Below, piece by piece: positions 1-6,759 of a stretch of 6,759 nucleotides of DNA. Origin of the DNA: a virus (Duplodnaviria; Heunggongvirae; Uroviricota; Caudoviricetes); IMG/VR virus record IMGVR_UViG_3300012155_000195; one strand, given 5' to 3'. Each line of letters starts with the position of its first letter. The first letter of the stretch is position 1. Below the pieces are notes generated by a model. The model did not search any database. It was not told the DNA's origin and was given only the letters and a program-made list of their open reading frames with translations. The position numbers were made by a program, and so were the translations under genes.

Positions 1-249
1 AACTGCAGTCAGTGAACCGATAAGCGTAGCAAACGTCGCTGAAAACACCGCCATCGTCAATGAATGCTGAGCTGCCTGCAACAGACTGTCGTTGTTCATC
101 AGCAGGCTATACCATTTAGTGGTAAAACCCTGCCAGTTGATGCCAAAGCGCGAGCTGTTGAAAGAGTTCACAATCAAAATAATGATTGGAATATACAGGT
201 ACGCGTAGATAGCGGTCATAAAACCGCCGCGAAGCAGTCGACCGATCAT
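1..249 (-). CDS. potC: Spermidine/putrescine ABC transporter permease PotC, N-terminal 83 codons (partial, runs off window at position 1)
   Basis: Minus-strand ATG at 249-247 preceded by AAGGTGGA RBS. Translation MIGRLLRGGFMTAIYAYLYIPIIILIVNSFNSSRFGINWQGFTTKWYSLLMNNDSLLQAAQHSLTMAVFSATFATLIGSLTAV matches my recollection of E. coli PotC N-terminus; hydrophobic TM1 present. About 50% GC, unlike adjacent AT-rich DNA. Not in the supplied ORF track because it is truncated by the window edge. Confidence 0.8.
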   Translation of the reverse strand, partial: MIGRLLRGGFMTAIYAYLYIPIIILIVNSFNSSRFGINWQGFTTKWYSLLMNNDSLLQAAQHSLTMAVFSATFATLIGSLTAV

Positions 250-300
250 TCGAGTTCCACCTTTTTATTCATAAGGTGGAGCACTTTCAGGATTTTGAAT
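246..300. other. Putative host-prophage junction (attL core region)
   Basis: Upstream reading frame ends KKVELE-TGA with the TGA overlapping the potC ATG (ATGA at 249-246), as expected for the potB-potC junction, but that frame is open for only 39 codons and is AT-rich. Perfect 7-bp inverted repeat ccacctt (257-263) / aaggtgg (273-279) with 9-nt loop. Abrupt compositional shift to AT-rich DNA to the right. Confidence 0.4.
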
Positions 301-318
301 TTATTCAACTTTTTCTCT

Positions 319-352
319 TCTCCAAAATCTCTCCAAAACTTTTCCCCAAAAA
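319..352. repeat. Three tandem ~11-bp direct repeats (tctccaaaatc / tctccaaaact / tttccccaaaaa), candidate arm-type integrase binding sites
   Basis: Direct repeats seen at 319-329, 330-340 and 341-352, about 70-100 bp from the putative core, on the int-proximal side. Lambda-type attP has three tandem arm-type sites at a comparable position. Confidence 0.35.
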
Positions 353-551
353 CAAGCCATGCATTCTACAGTATTTTCATTTATGCACGAATCTTACTAT
401 CCATTGACAATATTACTATTTTATCAAATCAAGTCATGCGGTTAGTGAACTTTGTGTGTTCGTTTTTTGTTCATTTACGATGATGATACTGACAATAGTG
501 GCTAGCTACGCAGGCATATAGAACAAATTAAAATCAATTTCAAGGAATTTA

Positions 552-580
552 TTGACGCTCTTCACGTTTTGTATGATACT
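552..580 (+). promoter_or_regulatory. Putative sigma70 promoter for the ATPase-TOPRIM operon
   Basis: TTGACG (552-557), 17-bp spacer, GATACT (575-580; 4/6 to TATAAT). About 30 bp upstream of the ATG at 611, which has a GGA-containing RBS at 599-603. Confidence 0.3.
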
Positions 581-610
581 AAATTCAACTTCCAAAAAGT
601 GGAAATAATT

Positions 611-1804
611 ATGATTTTTACTAGATTGAAATTTGTAAACCTTTGCGCATTTTCTGATGCAGAATTAAACCTTTCATTTCCCAGAAAGCTGGTTAACTCA
701 CCAATTGATGGTGAATTTTTGTTCGGGAGACCGAAGTTTTATTATCGCAAAGTATGTATCCTCACTGGAGCTAATGCTTCGGGAAAGACTTCCCTTGGTC
801 GTATGTTATGGGGGATTCAGCTTTTCTTGTCCCGGAAAAATTTGTATCAATCAGCTTTTCCTGTAAATGACAAAACCAAGAGTGCTTCCTTTGAGGCAGA
901 TTTTGCAACGGAAGGATTTTTGCATCATCGTATTTTCGTGAAGTTTAGATCCGATAAGTCTGGAACATATTTAATAAGTGAAGTTAAATACGCATCCGTA
1001 TTTATAGGAGAAAATGACTCTTGTGTCAAAACAACAAGAAAATTGGACAGAGTATTTCAAGAGTCAGGTCAGTATATTGCGAATAGCTATTACCATGCAG
1101 TGGCTGCTGATGGGGAATCTGTTTCTTTAGAGAATTTCAAGAAAAATGTGTTTCTTGGTGGATGGTATTATTTATTATCAAAAACAAAGGAAGAAACAAC
1201 AGAAATCTCTGGTTTAGATAAGAATATATTAGAACTTATCATGAAAACCTTTGATCCTAGTATAAAATCAGTTCTTGAATTAAGGGAAAATGATGGTGAA
1301 GAAAATGATAAAGATGTGTTAACGGGGTTTTCTATTCGTTTTCACAATAATGATAATGTTATTGTAACTAACTCTGGAGAAGTTGCTAATTGTGATCGGC
1401 TTTCACGTGGTACATACGATGCTGTAAAATTATCTCATTTTATTAGTTCTATAAATAGTGATTATATGGCATCGTCTGAAACAAATAATATAGCATGTAT
1501 GCTCTATTTTCTTGACGAAAGCATGGCTTATGTTCACTCAGAACTTGAAAGAGCTATCATAACTCTTATTATATCTAAATTGAAGATTAATAGTCAATTT
1601 TTCTATACAACGCATAATTGCGATATTTTTAAATTGGATTTGCCCATTCATTCGTATATTTTCATAAAGAAAGAGCATGATAGCTCAGTATTTGTAGATG
1701 CAAGTGAAATTCTTAAAAAGAATGACAGGAATTTAGCTAAATATGTTGAGAATGATGTTTTTGGTGTTCTTCCCGATTTGTCTTTGATTGAGGCGTTAAT
1801 ATAA
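611..1804 (+). CDS. ABC-type P-loop ATPase (AAA_21/AAA_15-like, OLD/AriA/AbiLi-like ATPase component), 397 aa
   Basis: ORF-track ORF 569..1804; I prefer ATG 611 (RBS 7 nt upstream) over the TTG at 569. Walker A GANASGKTS (767-793), signature-like LSRGT (1400-1414), Walker B MLYFLDE (1499-1519), H-loop TTH (1607-1615). About 200-aa insertion between Walker A and signature. Visibly AT-rich codon usage. Stop TAA overlaps the next ATG. Confidence 0.85.
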   Translation: MIFTRLKFVNLCAFSDAELNLSFPRKLVNSPIDGEFLFGRPKFYYRKVCILTGANASGKTSLGRMLWGIQLFLSRKNLYQSAFPVNDKTKSASFEADFATEGFLHHRIFVKFRSDKSGTYLISEVKYASVFIGENDSCVKTTRKLDRVFQESGQYIANSYYHAVAADGESVSLENFKKNVFLGGWYYLLSKTKEETTEISGLDKNILELIMKTFDPSIKSVLELRENDGEENDKDVLTGFSIRFHNNDNVIVTNSGEVANCDRLSRGTYDAVKLSHFISSINSDYMASSETNNIACMLYFLDESMAYVHSELERAIITLIISKLKINSQFFYTTHNCDIFKLDLPIHSYIFIKKEHDSSVFVDASEILKKNDRNLAKYVENDVFGVLPDLSLIEALI

Positions 1805-2346
1805 TGTCAAAAAATCAGAACGCAAAAATTATTTTTGTTGAAGGTGAAACAGAGTATGCCTTGTTTCAAAAGATGAAGCAAAAAGGTTTGATTAAATTCA
1901 AAAAAATTGTCAAGAAGAATTTTTGGGTTGATGATATAAAGAAATATGCAGTTAACATACCTAAAAATTGTGATTTAATAGTTGTTTTTGATAGTGATGT
2001 TATTGATAGAGTTGATAGATTTATTCAGAATGTTAATTACTTAGCAAGCAGAAAACATTCGATTTTTTTATTGCAACAGACCAGAAATTTCGAAGAGGAA
2101 ATCGCGTATTGCTGCTCTGTAACTTTAAATAAATTGATCGCTTCGTTTTGTAAATGCAAGACATCTGGAGTTGCAGATTTTAAGCGAGATTTTATATCTT
2201 CATCTAATCCTTTTGATAAGCTAGTGGCTTTAGGAATTAACCAGGATAAGTGGTTCAAAAGGGAGTTACATCATTCATTGTTAAGTTTATCAAAGTATAA
2301 ATCAGATTTTTCAACATATTTTAATGCGGATGTTATTAATTTATGA
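1804..2346 (+). CDS. Small TOPRIM-like putative nuclease (DUF4435 / DUF4276 / RloB-like effector component), 180 aa
   Basis: ATG at 1804 overlaps upstream stop (TAATG), indicating translational coupling. N-terminal KIIFVEGETE (E13 at 1840-1842, E15, E17) and LIVVFDSDVID (D63 at 1990-1992, D65 at 1996-1998) match the TOPRIM glutamate and DxD signatures. GAGG RBS at 1790-1793. Confidence 0.8.
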   Translation: MSKNQNAKIIFVEGETEYALFQKMKQKGLIKFKKIVKKNFWVDDIKKYAVNIPKNCDLIVVFDSDVIDRVDRFIQNVNYLASRKHSIFLLQQTRNFEEEIAYCCSVTLNKLIASFCKCKTSGVADFKRDFISSSNPFDKLVALGINQDKWFKRELHHSLLSLSKYKSDFSTYFNADVINL

Positions 2347-2369
2347 TATCTGTGTACTAATGTTATTCG

Positions 2370-2434
2370 TTACTATGGGAGAATTTCATTGTGCTGCTAA
2401 GAAATACAAAGCATAGTAAATCTCCTATTCTCCC
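2370..2434. repeat. Interleaved inverted repeats in the convergent intergenic region between the TOPRIM gene and int
   Basis: ttactatg (2370-2377) pairs with catagtaa (2412-2419); gggagaat (2377-2384) pairs with attctccc (2427-2434). No GC-rich stem plus T-run typical of an intrinsic terminator. Confidence 0.25.
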
Positions 2435-2526
2435 ACATAAGTTAAACGACAGTGCAAGTTTAAATTCGAATCATACTATCAGTATACCTTCAAGATGGCA
2501 ATTATGTTTTTATGGCAAATATCTTA

Positions 2527-3645
2527 TTAAATAACCAATTTAACCCATTCCTGACCACGAGTATCGTTATAACGATCGGTGGTTGCCTGGACTTTATGTC
2601 CCAGTAATGTTTTTGTATCAATACCCTGCGCGCGGTACAGTCGTTCTGACAGGGAGCGTTGTTCATGAAATGTTGGCGGAGTTTTTCCTGCTGGTGGAAT
2701 TATCCCTGCCAGATCCCGTGCTTTGGCAAAGTAGTCGCTCAGGTTGTCTTTACTCATCGGCTTTGGTTGTTTCTGGTGCCGACTATGGATTAGATATGGA
2801 CTTAATATTCTGTCTCGGCACCCATCAATAACTTCTTTTAACGTTATCCCAATGGCATCACAGCGTAGTGTAAGCGGTAACGCCAGACGCATTCCGGTTT
2901 TTCCCTGGGTGATATGCAAGTGTTCGTTCCACACATCTGAAAAACGCATGTGGCAAATGTCATCACGGCGCTGACCAGTAACAATCGCAAGAAGCATTGC
3001 GTTACGGATAAAGTGTTTTTCAGGCGTTGCGTTGTAAATTTTTTGCCAGTCTTCCAGGGTGAGTCTGGCTCTGGTTACTTTAGGGATCGGTTTACGGGTA
3101 GCCTCCGGAGGATTCCATCCAGGAGGAACTTCCCCTGCATGCTGTGCTTCTTTATAAATATCAACCCATAATCCACGATTTACTCTCGCTGTGCTGACCA
3201 TGTCTTTATCCAGCCACTCATCCAGTATTAATGCAAAGTCTCTTACTTCCAGTTCTTTCAATGGGTGGTTTCCCAGACGGGAAACCAGGTATGCAGCCAT
3301 TCGGGCTTTTTCTTTGTGAGTTGTAGCTGCAATATCTCCATTTTTCAGTCGCGTGTCCTGTATTTTCAGATATCGATCAACCCATGCCTTTAATCTGATA
3401 CCCCGACGTTTTGTTGCTGACGGACTTTCATCAATTTTGCGCATGAAATATTCAGCTTCTGCTGCAGCTATTCGCTGATTGGCTGTGGAAGCGATTTTTT
3501 CTGCCTTACCTTTGTCTGTTCCGAGTCCGTGAAATTTTCCAGTCACAGGATTTTTATACTGGTAGTAAACTCTGCCAGTTCTGCGATCAAACTTTTCGTA
3601 AAGACCAGCTACGTCAGTGCTGTTTTTTCGTGGCCTCGGTGACAT
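2527..3645 (-). CDS. int: Lambda-family tyrosine integrase (site-specific recombinase), 372 aa
   Basis: Clear collinear similarity to lambda Int by recall: N-terminal arm-binding region (YYQYKNPVTGKFHGLGTDK vs lambda YCYRDPRTGKEFGLGRDR), catalytic motifs TGQRRDD (Arg), QGKTG (Lys), TFHEQRSLSERLY (His/Arg), LLGHK (His), TDRYNDTRGQEW (Tyr nucleophile). AAGGAGA RBS 9 nt upstream of the ATG at 3645. Confidence 0.95.
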   Translation of the reverse strand: MSPRPRKNSTDVAGLYEKFDRRTGRVYYQYKNPVTGKFHGLGTDKGKAEKIASTANQRIAAAEAEYFMRKIDESPSATKRRGIRLKAWVDRYLKIQDTRLKNGDIAATTHKEKARMAAYLVSRLGNHPLKELEVRDFALILDEWLDKDMVSTARVNRGLWVDIYKEAQHAGEVPPGWNPPEATRKPIPKVTRARLTLEDWQKIYNATPEKHFIRNAMLLAIVTGQRRDDICHMRFSDVWNEHLHITQGKTGMRLALPLTLRCDAIGITLKEVIDGCRDRILSPYLIHSRHQKQPKPMSKDNLSDYFAKARDLAGIIPPAGKTPPTFHEQRSLSERLYRAQGIDTKTLLGHKVQATTDRYNDTRGQEWVKLVI

Positions 3646-3883
3646 GAGTTAAAATCTCCTTCAGTGCATCATCATCGCCAGTATGAATTTCCGGCGCAAT
3701 TCCCGTTTCACCAGGTCCAACAAATACTGCTCGGCGATCTATCAGCCAACGCCCACGAATTTTTTGTGGCCTTGGAACGATGTATCCTAGTTTTCCGTAT
3801 TTCACCAGGGTAGTGTTTGTTATTGGGAGACTGAACCGTTTTGGTTTCCACTCGTCGAGCGTTATCAGGTACTGTTCGCTCAT
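3614..3883 (-). CDS. xis: Excisionase (Xis-like recombination directionality factor), 89 aa
   Basis: Immediately upstream of int and overlapping it by 32 nt, as in lambda. N-terminal MSEQYLITLDEW resembles lambda Xis MYLTLQEW. Start chosen at ATG 3883 (GGAG RBS) rather than the GTG at 3892 used by the ORF track. Confidence 0.8.
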   Translation of the reverse strand: MSEQYLITLDEWKPKRFSLPITNTTLVKYGKLGYIVPRPQKIRGRWLIDRRAVFVGPGETGIAPEIHTGDDDALKEILTHVTEATKKQH

Positions 3884-3944
3884 GGCTATCACTCCGGAAC
3901 GCGCCAGTTGCAGAATACCAACGACAACTGGCGACGGTTGAACA

Positions 3945-6410
3945 TTAAAAATCAGCCTGACTCGGGATCAGTTTTTGCCAGATAGCTGAAACGTATTTTG
4001 CCTGGTAACGGGCGTCATCAAGTGCATTGTGGCGCACCCCTTCGAACGGAATAGCCGTTCTGGCATCGAAGTCTATGGCTTTCCCCAGCTCAACGATTGT
4101 GCGTACATCGCGATCGTTGGACCAGCGCCACGGGCAGGGGATACCATGTCGCTCATATGAACGGCGTAAAATCACGTTGTCGAAGTTGGCTCCATTCCCC
4201 CAGACCCGGACAAAAAATTCACCGGAGTTTTCGTCGATAAATTCCCGCAGTTGCAGCAGTGCATCGTCTAACGGGATTTGATTTACCAAAGTTGCAGATC
4301 TGGCCTCGCTGGACTGTGCCAGCCACCATTCGATGGTGGAACCATCAGGAACAGCACCTTTGTCCATTGCGTCAACTAGGCTGATGACAACATAAAATAT
4401 TGGTCCAATTTCTCCGGTCTGCGGATCGAAAAATATTGCACCTATTGAGATGATCGGGGCATCTGGATTTTTTCCCATGGTTTCAAGGTCGATCATCAGA
4501 TGGTGCCACACCCTGCTGGTGGATGTGATTTGGTGATGACCGTTCATATTAATTAAGGGATCTGTCGCCTCGCCAGTTTCATTATCGCTGGCGTGATGCT
4601 GATTGCCGCCAGGGTTCTCCTTGTGTGGATGTTCAGCGCCTTCCATTTCCTCTGGATCATTTTCCTGAACTTCAACCTGATTCTCTTCATCGAATGTTTC
4701 CTGGTATGTTGCAGCGCCCATCACCGCGCCACAATCAGGGCAGTTGTCACCGCCGGTCTGACCGCAGGCGGTGCAGACTTTTTCCGCTTCCTGTTGCGCT
4801 ACTGGCTCAGGTTGTTTCGTTTCTGGCTCGTTTTGTAACGCATTTGGGCTGTTGTGTTTCGCTTTCTGGTCGTTCTGTTCCGTTTCTTGCTGGTTCTGGT
4901 TCACTGAATCGCGGGGGTCAATCCCCTTCACCCATTTCGGATCATTCGGGTCGCTAATCCCTGCAACAAATTCACCGCGAGAGGCAGCAAGCAACTTATC
5001 GGCGTCAGGCTGGCTGATATTGGCTGCCTGCATAATTTTGTTTACTTCGTCAGCGGTAACTTTTACCTGATTAACTGGATCTACCTGTTTCTGAGTATCC
5101 AGCGATTGCGTGTCCTGGCGATGTTCAGTTGTATCCGGTTCCATTGTTTCAGCCGTTGCCTGTTCATCTGCCATTGCGTCAGACGGTTGTGATTTTTCCT
5201 CATTATTTTTTTCTTCTTCTGTTTCGCGTTCAGCAGCCAGTTCGCGGTTAACTTCTTCCAGGATATCTTTTTCCGGTGTATGTCGTGCAGCAGCGAGAGT
5301 TTCCTCGGTAGGGTTCTCGTGATCAGTCTCTGTTAAATAGGCGTTAATATACCCCTGAAGGCGCCCCGGGTAGTGATAAAACTCAGGGTGTGCGCTTCGG
5401 ATAAGTGCAAAAATAGCGGCACGGGAATAATCCAGAATACCCGGGGTTGAGCGAAGTGCTGCGGACCATTCTTTGAACGGACTTTCTTTCTTCCGGACGA
5501 CTTCTTTTGCGCGACGATAAACGCTGCCCGGGATTTCATAAATATTAAAATCCATCGGAAGTGTGGCCGCTGCAATCTCCACATCCAGCGTATCGAGGGT
5601 GTGCACTAAATTCGGATTGCGATCGGTTTTGTTCCCGCCGCCAGCATTAGCACCGGAAGCCGTGCGGGTGATGCGTGAAACACGATTCCCCTTCATCCAC
5701 TCTTTTGTAAGCAGACCGCGATCGGTGTAGTCAGTGTCAAGGTATGCTTCGATGAAAGCAGTCATCACCCCCAGTTCTGAATTTACGGGGGCGGGAAAAA
5801 CACTGCCAGTATCCCGAACCAGTTTGTATAAATCCCGAATCTCCAGTGGCTCCAGTTGAGCTGCTTTATTTGAAATGGCACGGATTGTAACTGCAGGGAG
5901 TTCCTCATCCAGCGCACTATGTAATGCCCGAAGTTCTTCCCGTGAAACGTGCGTTACTGGTTTTTCGTTGCCGCGTTGAGCAAGCCAGCGAATGGGCAGC
6001 TCCTGACCGGAAACCGGCAGGAGCATGTTCTCCTCAATCTCTGTCATTTCTTCGCCGTTGACGTTGGTATTGTCAGTGCTGGCTGGTTTGTCCTGAACAG
6101 AGGGGGAGGGCGCGATAAGTACCATTGTGATACCATCTTCCCCGCCTTTTTCGTATCGGTTGCAGAATTCGGTATCAAACACGCCTTCCGGAGGAAGGTC
6201 ATTCACAACGGGTAAATGGACGCGAACAGGTTTTTTAAAATCCTCTTCGTCAAATCCGGCATCGTCCATTGCGACAACACCGCGTGATATTGCAACCGAT
6301 AATTTTTTTGCTGTGCGCCAGTAAAAACCGCCTTTAATCCCAAGGCGTTTTCTGACTTTGTCATTTTTGGCTTCGTAATATAGTGCAATTTCTTCTTTAT
6401 CAGTGCTCAT
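3945..6410 (-). CDS. Exodeoxyribonuclease VIII-like mosaic protein with acidic linker, zinc-ribbon-like CxxC..CxxC motif and C-terminal DnaQ-type DEDDh 3'-5' exonuclease domain, 821 aa
   Basis: Long ORF with GAGG RBS upstream of ATG 6410. C-terminal domain has Exo I MIDLETMG (D641 at 4488-4490, E643 at 4482-4484), Exo II GNGANFD (D744) and Exo III HNALDDARYQAKY (H794, D799; 4014-4031). CTACG..CPDCG at residues 546-560 (4731-4775). Glu/Asp/Gln-rich low-complexity regions around residues 360-440 and 500-620. The N-terminal ~350 aa resemble prophage exonuclease VIII (RecE-family) N-terminal regions by recollection only. Confidence 0.85.
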   Translation of the reverse strand: MSTDKEEIALYYEAKNDKVRKRLGIKGGFYWRTAKKLSVAISRGVVAMDDAGFDEEDFKKPVRVHLPVVNDLPPEGVFDTEFCNRYEKGGEDGITMVLIAPSPSVQDKPASTDNTNVNGEEMTEIEENMLLPVSGQELPIRWLAQRGNEKPVTHVSREELRALHSALDEELPAVTIRAISNKAAQLEPLEIRDLYKLVRDTGSVFPAPVNSELGVMTAFIEAYLDTDYTDRGLLTKEWMKGNRVSRITRTASGANAGGGNKTDRNPNLVHTLDTLDVEIAAATLPMDFNIYEIPGSVYRRAKEVVRKKESPFKEWSAALRSTPGILDYSRAAIFALIRSAHPEFYHYPGRLQGYINAYLTETDHENPTEETLAAARHTPEKDILEEVNRELAAERETEEEKNNEEKSQPSDAMADEQATAETMEPDTTEHRQDTQSLDTQKQVDPVNQVKVTADEVNKIMQAANISQPDADKLLAASRGEFVAGISDPNDPKWVKGIDPRDSVNQNQQETEQNDQKAKHNSPNALQNEPETKQPEPVAQQEAEKVCTACGQTGGDNCPDCGAVMGAATYQETFDEENQVEVQENDPEEMEGAEHPHKENPGGNQHHASDNETGEATDPLINMNGHHQITSTSRVWHHLMIDLETMGKNPDAPIISIGAIFFDPQTGEIGPIFYVVISLVDAMDKGAVPDGSTIEWWLAQSSEARSATLVNQIPLDDALLQLREFIDENSGEFFVRVWGNGANFDNVILRRSYERHGIPCPWRWSNDRDVRTIVELGKAIDFDARTAIPFEGVRHNALDDARYQAKYVSAIWQKLIPSQADF

Positions 6411-6500: not shown

Positions 6501-6692
6501 TTAAAGCCCTGCCGGGACTTCGTTATTATCCATGCGAATAACTTTATCGACCGGATAACAGTTACCGGGAATTTTCTGTTCCGCTGCAGCAGCCATGCAT
6601 TCTTTCATTGAGCCATATATACCAGTAACCACATCAACCGGTTCACCTGTATTAAGAAAAACTGTCAGAACGAGTGCAAATGCTGTATTCAT
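6501..6692 (-). CDS. Small hypothetical prophage protein (63 aa) with hydrophobic N-terminus
   Basis: ATG at 6692 with AAAGGA RBS 8 nt upstream. N-terminus MNTAFALVLTVFL looks like a signal peptide or membrane anchor. The ORF track extends it to 6746 but that extension lacks this support and reaches the window edge. Confidence 0.45.
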   Translation of the reverse strand: MNTAFALVLTVFLNTGEPVDVVTGIYGSMKECMAAAAEQKIPGNCYPVDKVIRMDNNEVPAGL

Positions 6693-6759
6693 TGTCAGCG
6701 TCCTTTTTGCATCAGGCGTAAACGGGCCAGCATTGAAACAATGCATATTTGATTTAATA

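Follow-up and report, generated by a model that had tools for sequence, protein, structure and literature searches.

AbiL and MADS3-4 have recently been grouped with the defence systems that combine an ABC-type ATPase with a TOPRIM protein. In lactococcal AbiL the two components form a two-gene operon, in which the gene of an ABC-type ATPase is followed by that of a small TOPRIM-like protein (AbiLii, RloB-like), and in PARIS they are likewise split into two proteins, AriA and AriB, borne by prophages or satellites. The OLD protein of phage P2 is a single polypeptide, and GajA of the Gabija system is also a fusion protein, accompanied by the UvrD-like helicase GajB. Here we analyze a stretch of 6,759 nucleotides (IMG/VR record IMGVR_UViG_3300012155_000195, Caudoviricetes; “the window” below means this whole stretch), which carries a two-gene module resembling these systems. 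The second gene of the module encodes a protein of 180 amino acids, which is most likely the nuclease half of an AbiL/OLD-type anti-phage module on an Escherichia coli prophage.

The mode of action has been described for several of these systems. In PARIS, AriA releases AriB, which degrades tRNA-Lys. P2 OLD, whose TOPRIM cleft opens, cuts transfer RNAs (tRNAs), with neither cleavage of double-stranded DNA nor a signal in the TUNEL assay, and a mutation in its ATPase domain abolishes tRNA cleavage. BpOLD, an OLD protein of Burkholderia pseudomallei, and GajA cleave DNA in vitro. In the NetFlax AAA/TOPRIM_OLD pairs, the TOPRIM protein is a toxin that the ATPase neutralizes. The two-metal active site of BpOLD consists of E400, E404, the DxD residues D455/D457, T506/E508 at the opening of the helical domain, and the catalytic lysine K562 (PMC6755086). 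In P2 Old the catalytic pocket comprises E398, E402, D453 and D455, of which E402 is critical, and the E402A variant is used as an inactive control (2026 preprint).

A conserved family of small proteins

The gene of the 180-residue protein and the codons discussed below are as follows.

1804..2346, + strand: 180-residue OLD/AbiLii-type TOPRIM protein, predicted nuclease effector
1840..1854, + strand: codons of E13-G14-E15-T16-E17; E13 is the TOPRIM glutamate and E17 the second acid, as in OLD nucleases
1990..1998, + strand: codons of D63-S64-D65, the TOPRIM DxD motif
2092..2100, + strand: codons of E97-E98-E99, at the beginning of the helix that follows strand 4; proposed metal-B ligands
2110..2157, + strand: codons of the cysteine cluster, residues 103-118, lineage-specific
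2182..2184, + strand: codon of K127, proposed catalytic lysine

The open reading frame (ORF) at 1804..2346 starts with ATG and was found exactly as a first-pass annotation of the window, made from its letters alone, had read it. It is a genuine, conserved gene, although RefSeq labels its product at the syntenic locus only as “hypothetical protein”. Its close homologues share 44-66% identity with it and come from Escherichia, Citrobacter, Salmonella, Leclercia, Kluyvera and Erwinia, and a profile search added members from Klebsiella and Clostridiales. An exhaustive hidden Markov model (HMM) search, run on one representative per 50%-identity cluster, recovered 348 of them at E<=1e-3; at the stricter E<=1e-10 the number was 124. 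The members are standalone proteins of about 170 amino acids, nearly all of them between 160 and 190. The small size of the protein, which the same annotation had called minimal, is not unusual: the model of AbiLii is 170 positions long, and the PDB contains standalone Toprim proteins with as few as 115-118 amino acids.

The residue counts come from an alignment of the window protein with 139 of these cluster representatives (clusters at 50% identity), which are 22-40% identical to it. Eight residues are near-invariant, each being kept in at least 137 of the 139 sequences: E13 (138/139), G14 (138/139), E17 (137/139), D63 (139/139), D65 (139/139), E97 (139/139), E99 (138/139) and K127 (137/139). 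Four polar residues are also strongly conserved, namely N39 (127/139), N76 (134/139), Q92 (135/139) and N95 (127/139). Because the representatives share merely 22-40% identity with the window protein, the conserved residues mark a functional site. The first-pass annotation had placed an acidic set at E13, E15, E17, D63 and D65. All five residues are where it put them, and four of them are conserved far beyond chance; the conservation of E15 is moderate, with glutamate in only 97/139.

A probable TOPRIM core with a compact helical lobe

An AlphaFold2 (AF2) model of the 180-residue protein has a mean predicted local distance difference test score (pLDDT) of 90.1 and shows an alternation of strands and helices. 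In this model the TOPRIM core comprises residues 1-95, with strands at 8-12, 34-37, 57-63 and 86-92, and it is followed by a C-terminal lobe of six helices (residues 96-173). The acidic residues lie where a TOPRIM nuclease of the OLD type carries them: E13 directly follows the first strand, as the strand-1 glutamate of TOPRIM does, D63-S64-D65 closes strand 57-63 in the manner of the DxD motif, and E17 stands four residues past the Toprim glutamate, at the place of the OLD second acid. The protein had been described at first as containing little beyond a TOPRIM core. The core is indeed there, and with it a six-helix lobe that holds the near-invariant residues E97, E99 and K127.

The comparison with BpOLD suggests what this lobe may contribute. 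The invariant residues of the family run in the same order as E400, E404, D455, D457, T506, E508 and K562 of BpOLD, and the spacing of E13 and E17 is identical to that of E400 and E404. Helix 96-103 of the AF2 model holds E97 and E99, and K127 lies in the third helix (123-132). We therefore propose, from this order of residues, that E97-x-E99 is the counterpart of T506-x-E508, providing metal-B ligands, and that K127 is the counterpart of the catalytic lysine K562. The most plausible reading of the C-terminal region is a compact equivalent of the helical domain in OLD, which would supply part of the active site. The window nuclease is the more compact of the two, since the distance from DxD to ExE is 34 residues versus 51 in BpOLD and that from ExE to the lysine 28 versus 54.

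Profile comparisons point in the same direction. A search with the C-terminal region of P2 Old returned only five fragments, and for this reason P2 Old was compared as a single sequence with the family profile. With hhalign the profile matched P2 Old at E=0.0036 over 142 columns within the Old TOPRIM domain (393-549), and E13, E17, D63 and D65 were paired with E398, E402, D453 and D455, respectively. As a control, hhalign of the family profile with 17 unrelated proteins gave E-values of 0.05 or worse and at most 28 aligned columns. The profile also matched the small Toprim protein 1T6T of A. aeolicus at a marginal E-value of 0.038, aligning lvEGetE with LVEGKND and vfDtD with LFDLD, so that E27/D31 and the DLD motif of 1T6T correspond to E13/E17 and DxD of the family. 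The C-terminal-helix residue E110 of 1T6T matches E508 of BpOLD and lies 83 residues from the Toprim glutamate, compared with 86 in the window protein. Like 2I5R of B. stearothermophilus, 1T6T is a single-domain protein of similar or smaller size; unlike the window protein, these two have no reported ATPase partner. They act in rRNA maturation rather than in immunity.

Curated models recognize part of the family. The PADLOC model of AbiLii (PDLC02337) is matched by 84/139 members at E<=0.01, with a best value of 1e-7, and two of four homologues that were scanned separately had no AbiLii match at 1e-3. Pfam OLD-like_TOPRIM is matched by 17/139 (best 1.1e-6), and a few members match RloB, DUF3226, DUF4276, Toprim or Toprim_2. 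Foldseek searches of the 180-residue protein against PDB and BFVD returned nothing significant, a PDB sequence search with a narrower profile, A2 (40 members), gave only a spurious match to a RAD GTPase, and NCBIfam yielded no meaningful match for either protein of the module. Taken together, the homology to TOPRIM proteins of the OLD type is well supported at the level of sequence motifs, with the fold searches not proving it.

The ATPase partner and the relationship to AbiL

The partner gene and the elements around it are listed here.

552..580, + strand: candidate promoter of the sigma-70 type, TTGACG-17-GATACT, lying upstream of the gene for the ATPase (consensus scan, 9/12)
611..1804, + strand: AbiLi-like ABC ATPase, 397 amino acids (AbiLi E=2.6e-25; AAA_15)
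1802..1806, + strand: TAATG, in which the stop codon of the ATPase gene overlaps the start codon of the TOPRIM gene (ORF coordinates and sequence)

Counted from the ATG at 611, the ATPase has a Walker A motif GANASGKT (53-60), a signature motif LSRGT (264-268), a Walker B motif FLDE (300-303) and an H-loop TTHN (333-336). All four motifs and the N-terminus MIFTRLK are kept in four orthologous partner proteins. The TTG at 569, which an ORF finder had proposed as the start (569..1804), was rejected: it adds 14 non-conserved residues, and both RefSeq and the conserved MIFTRLK favor the ATG at 611. Promoter-like sites in this region are only slightly more frequent than in shuffled sequence, which makes the candidate at 552..580 weak evidence. 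No RNA gene turned up when the window was scanned with Rfam and for tRNAs.

The pairing of the small protein with an ATPase is obligate. In eight of eight contexts, namely the window, three other Escherichia/Citrobacter lineages, Klebsiella, a Clostridiales bacterium, a metagenomic lineage and an Acinetobacter prophage, a gene for an ATPase of 370-433 amino acids lies directly upstream on the same strand, either overlapping or 1-4 nt apart. The TAATG overlap in the window suggests translational coupling of the two genes. The ABC-type ATPase that accompanies OLD-family TOPRIM proteins, fused or adjacent, is thus found here in its adjacent form. The first-pass annotation, which had seen a small TOPRIM-type protein working with an ATPase, was right in this respect, with the E...DxD residues in register with P2 Old and 1T6T and the ATPase gene upstream in all eight contexts.

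The identity of the ATPase relates the module to AbiL. The window ATPase matches the PADLOC model of AbiLi (PDLC02335) at E=2.6e-25, far better than the models of mad3 (8.3e-13), AriA (3e-9 or weaker), GajA (0.019) or PtuA, and its score of 34.1 bits for Pfam AAA_15 exceeds the cutoff, which is 32.1. All six ATPases that were scanned, the window one included, match AbiLi at 1e-22 to 1e-28, among them four partner ATPases from other contexts. A PDB sequence search with the window ATPase gave no meaningful match. Judged by these similarities, strong for the ATPase and weak for the second protein, AbiL is the named system to which the module appears most closely related. The similarity to AbiL exists only at the profile level, and the window module sits in an Enterobacteriaceae prophage, not on a plasmid. 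In tblastn searches with the window ATPase for canonical lactococcal AbiL, an Acinetobacter plasmid was the sole match at E<=1e-3 among 72,556 plasmid records, and apart from it two phage records matched. The module probably belongs to the OLD-type group of ABC ATPase and TOPRIM systems, as a divergent and AbiL-like member.

Other systems of the group fit less well. The module resembles the P2 Old protein and the OLD family in the E-x3-E...DxD residues that are in register, in the helical lobe that follows the TOPRIM core as in BpOLD, and in a homologue that occupies the P2 old locus (see below); it differs from them in that the ATPase and the TOPRIM protein are separate polypeptides. PARIS shares the split ATPase and TOPRIM components and provides a mechanistic template, but was rejected as an assignment: the 180-residue protein has no DUF4435 match, and the ATPase matches AriA far more weakly than AbiLi. 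AriB, at about 35 kDa, is also larger than the window protein, which we estimate at about 21 kDa. The RloA/RloB pair of Campylobacter (PF13707) is alike in having a small protein whose N-terminus bears an EGxxE-type motif, in its ATPase partner and in its kinship to OLD TOPRIM domains. RloB matches in the family are weak (9/40 in the closer alignment A2 and 4/139 representatives, best about 7e-4), and one clade member carries the UniRef name “RloB domain-containing”. RloB proper was rejected since the window protein has no PF13707 match even at E<=1, and the module, unlike RloA/RloB, lies outside a type I restriction-modification (R-M) locus. Gabija GajA, HEC-01 and MADS mad3/mad4 follow the same logic of ABC ATPase and TOPRIM; some family members match the GajA, HEC-01B and mad4 models, much more weakly than those of AbiLi/AbiLii. 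Gabija was rejected because neither of the two genes of the cassette encodes a helicase, the ATPase and the TOPRIM protein are not fused, and the ATPase matches GajA at only E=0.019.

Several points weigh against reading the 180-residue protein as the nuclease of an AbiL/OLD-type defence module. The classical TOPRIM glycine after strand 2, whose position is described in PMC6755086, is not evident in the window protein, which near that site has K33 before strand 2 and N39 after it; in the family, G33 is found in 110/139 and the asparagine at 39 is conserved. The window protein stays below the cutoffs of curated HMMs, reaching 16.8 bits of the 23.2 required by Pfam OLD-like_TOPRIM, over residues 8-27 only. 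It matches AbiLii at merely E=5e-4, with the best stretch covering model positions 30-53 of 170. The hhalign match to P2 Old has a probability of 9%, and its C-terminal half is unreliable. The mechanism of AbiL, a system described in 1999, is unsolved, and the related HEC-01 (ATPase and TOPRIM) gave no protection when assayed against a phage panel.

These observations leave room for a protein that is no nuclease at all, either a generic Rossmann-like alpha/beta protein or a silent TOPRIM-like adaptor of the ATPase. Such a protein would account for the curated HMM thresholds that the window protein does not reach and for the fold searches, in which TOPRIM proteins ranked below folds of the generic Rossmann-like, CheY-like and SIS kinds. 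However, TOPRIM itself is Rossmann-like, so generic matches are expected, and the seven charged residues that are near-invariant across proteins of only 25-35% identity, four of which are aligned with P2 Old residues of proven catalytic function, argue against a silent adaptor, for which conservation of this kind would be unexpected. We consider this explanation very improbable and retain the assignment to the OLD-type nucleases.

The cysteine cluster

The 180-residue protein contains five cysteines, at residues 56, 103, 104, 116 and 118, and the first-pass annotation had drawn attention to the last four, proposing that they might bind metal or mediate docking to the ATPase. The string that it quoted, CCSVTLNKLIASFCKCK, does contain four cysteines within residues 103-118, although it spans residues 103-119. 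If five cysteines are placed at random in 180 residues, four of them fall within 16 residues with P ~0.008, in a test that was made post hoc.

The conservation of these positions differs sharply from that of the active-site residues. Cysteine occurs at position 103 in 25/139 sequences, the usual residues there being A or S, and at position 104 in 90/139, with T or L otherwise. C116 is present in 6/139 and C118 in 1/139, the window protein alone. Residues 116-118 form a three-residue insertion that is absent from 129/139. Fourteen of the 139 sequences have no cysteine at any site of the cluster and 29/139 have only C104. In the AF2 model the cysteines lie at the C-terminal ends of lobe helices, outside the conserved machinery. 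A conserved metal-binding or docking elaboration is thus contradicted by the alignment, as C116 and C118 are not conserved, C103 largely not and C104 only in part. Judging from the alignment, the cluster is most likely a lineage-specific quirk and not a conserved functional feature.

Within the enterobacterial clade the pattern is different. C103, C104, C116 and C133 occur together in 23/28 sequences, and C104, C116 and C133 in 27/28. Compared with the 27 closest clade members, the window allele has lost C133 (S133, 2200-2202) and has uniquely gained C118 (2155-2157), a change that could be drift or a compensating swap. In this clade the cysteines might form a structural zinc site or a redox switch in the helical lobe, made of C103, C104, C116 and C133, with C118 replacing C133 in the window protein. 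The frequent co-occurrence of the cysteines, their clustering beyond random placement, the possibly compensating exchange and the fact that they flank the helix of the invariant E97/E99 are in favor of this idea. On the other hand, the positions are not conserved across the family, the insertion that carries two of them is mostly missing, and the residues that substitute at 103 and 104 are small, buried packing residues. Moreover, the region is modeled without metal as ordered helices with a pLDDT of 90-95, and the spacing CxxC or CxxH that is usual in zinc knuckles is lacking. We therefore regard a zinc or redox site as quite doubtful and favor a lineage-specific quirk. If such a site did exist beside the putatively catalytic E97/E99/K127, it would be a regulatory input undescribed for any OLD, AbiL or PARIS nuclease.

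Modules in other genomes

Homologous modules occur in several mobile settings. In Klebsiella the module (3774-5531 of the examined loci) lies between the portal gene gpQ and gpA of P2-like prophages. This is the locus at which P2 carries old and tin, and it has been validated as a defence hotspot (Rousset et al.). Here a split ATPase/TOPRIM module holds the place that the fused Old has in P2. Further homologues are found in a lambdoid prophage, within its early-right region, in a Citrobacter prophage with a Mu-like tail, between the tail genes and the immunity region, and next to int in the Acinetobacter phage Ab105-3phi. The Clostridiales pair lies about 2 kb from genes that encode a restriction enzyme of the HindVP type, a C5 DNA methylase and the endonuclease Vsr (1-1857 and 3889-5516 of the loci), a setting that looks like a defence island. 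Also near this pair are two radical SAM genes, with the gene of a UvrA-like ABC protein between them.

In several E. coli genomes a module of 53% identity stands head-to-tail with a gene for a polyvalent protein of about 2800 amino acids (6637 onward, − strand) with LPD1, LPD5, LPD38 and MuF_C domains. Giant polyvalent proteins are typical of mobile elements.

The distribution of the homologues is as expected for a mobile anti-phage module, and it bears on a further explanation, namely that the pair is mainly a toxin-antitoxin (TA) or addiction module that stabilizes the prophage or the cassette and senses no phage. Two features fit the architecture of TA modules, since the ATPase, as a putative antitoxin, is encoded first and the genes are coupled through TAATG; NetFlax validated pairs of AAA ATPase and TOPRIM_OLD proteins in toxicity-neutralization assays, and HEC-01 showed no defence. 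Against a role in addiction alone stand the homologue in the P2 old/tin hotspot and those beside R-M genes, and the authors of NetFlax themselves propose such pairs as abortive infection (Abi) defence systems; TA and Abi functions are not mutually exclusive. An addiction module without phage sensing is in our view unlikely, and a mobile anti-phage module is the interpretation that we prefer.

The cassette and its prophage

The window derives from the E. coli chromosome at the potB/potC junction, with a lambdoid prophage integrated at potC. Its other features are as follows.

1..249, − strand: 5' part of the chromosomal potC (assigned from RefSeq at the syntenic locus)
371..2528: inserted cassette of 2158 bp with the two-gene module, in place of 47 bp that ordinary potC-integrated prophages have from the att-proximal DNA to the stop codon of int
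2527..3645, − strand: lambda-type integrase (Arm-DNA-bind_1 3.7e-21, Phage_integrase 2.1e-18); context, outside the module
3614-3892, − strand: xis, prophage early-left arm
3945-6410, − strand: RecE-like exonuclease of 821 amino acids, prophage early-left arm
6501-6746, − strand: DUF1482 protein, prophage early-left arm

The borders of the cassette can be delimited by comparison with other genomes. Genomes without a prophage at this site, in which potB adjoins potC, match window positions 1-271, and genomes with a cassette-less prophage match 1-370; the attachment (att) junction accordingly lies within 250-271, and 272-370 is att-proximal prophage DNA. A blastn comparison of the junction in ATCC 25922 with the window gave homology blocks at 119-370 and 2529-2628. 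Homology to int starts at 2529, and the int region is common to 1632/5426 complete E. coli genomes, but only 9/5426 hold the cassette. In three cassette-less prophage genomes that we opened, int lies 167 bp from potC. The GC content is 29-33% in the cassette versus 45-50% in the flanks. The segment 371-2528 is probably horizontally acquired cargo between the attachment site and int.

The prophage at potB/potC parts potC-potD from potA-potB of the potABCD operon, the potC start codon being at 247-249 (−), and with the cassette another 2.1 kb of AT-rich sequence comes to lie upstream of potC. An ORF of 139 amino acids at 64-483 (+), antisense to potC and reaching into the intergenic region, was examined and set aside as very likely spurious. 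In the early-left arm, the exonuclease of 821 amino acids is a mosaic of an N-terminal Exonuc_VIII (RecE-type) segment at residues 56-189 and an Rv2179c-like DEDD 3'-5' exonuclease at residues 636-811 (E=3e-68). It also has a weak, sub-cutoff match to Pfam DZR (E=0.059) at residues 541-564, with CTACGQTGGDNCPDCG nearby. In the O157:H7 strain G5295 the gene of this exonuclease is a truncated pseudogene.

Proposed mechanism

As a whole, the data are probably best explained by a divergent AbiL-like immune cassette carried as prophage cargo, with the 180-residue protein as the effector and the ATPase as sensor and restraint. By analogy with the systems described above, we infer a defence function for the module and the role of the ATPase as a restraint. 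The TOPRIM core and the helical lobe would together build a two-metal site of the OLD type, in which metal A is held by E13, D63 and D65 and metal B by E17 and E97/E99, and in which K127 would act on the scissile phosphate; these roles of E97, E99 and K127 are inferred from their counterparts in BpOLD. The ABC ATPase would most likely keep the nuclease inactive until a phage cue is sensed, whereupon it would release or activate the nuclease. The active nuclease would then cut host nucleic acid and the infection would be aborted, with arrest of the cell or of the phage.

The direction of this control differs from the one proposed at the outset, when the small size of the protein had been taken to mean that nuclease activity depends strictly on the ATPase. 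Strict dependence is disfavored because in NetFlax the TOPRIM protein is a toxin that the ATPase neutralizes, and in PARIS, too, the free TOPRIM protein is toxic and the ATPase restrains it; yet ATPase mutants of P2 OLD lose tRNA cleavage.

With regard to the target, tRNA is slightly favored by analogy with AriB of PARIS and with P2 OLD, and DNA is the alternative. In that alternative the module is the same and its effector nicks or degrades phage or host DNA, as GajA and the Burkholderia OLD do in vitro. The two best-studied cases in vivo, however, cut tRNA: AriB degrades tRNA-Lys, and P2 OLD showed neither double-stranded DNA cleavage nor a TUNEL signal. In addition, the closest small standalone Toprim relative that we detected, 1T6T, is a putative RNase M5. 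A DNA target is possible and, in our judgment, the less probable of the two, and we give slight preference to tRNA.

Significance

Since the window protein and most of its family miss the Pfam cutoffs, a likely immune effector with no fewer than 348 sequence clusters goes unnamed in Pfam. The module does not change the understanding of ATPase and TOPRIM systems, and the size of its effector is ordinary for the class. The annotation gained here is useful and unsurprising, and the cysteine cluster, the feature that prompted the study of the protein, fails as a conserved element. The prophage cargo sites of the module vary, from the att-int junction through the P2 old/tin hotspot to the lambdoid early-right region. 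Being compact, native to E. coli, borne by a prophage and equipped with clear candidate catalytic residues, the module is a convenient model for the trigger and the target of AbiL-type systems, and a compact system of this type in E. coli could reveal a new specificity, for example a new set of tRNAs or a new phage trigger.

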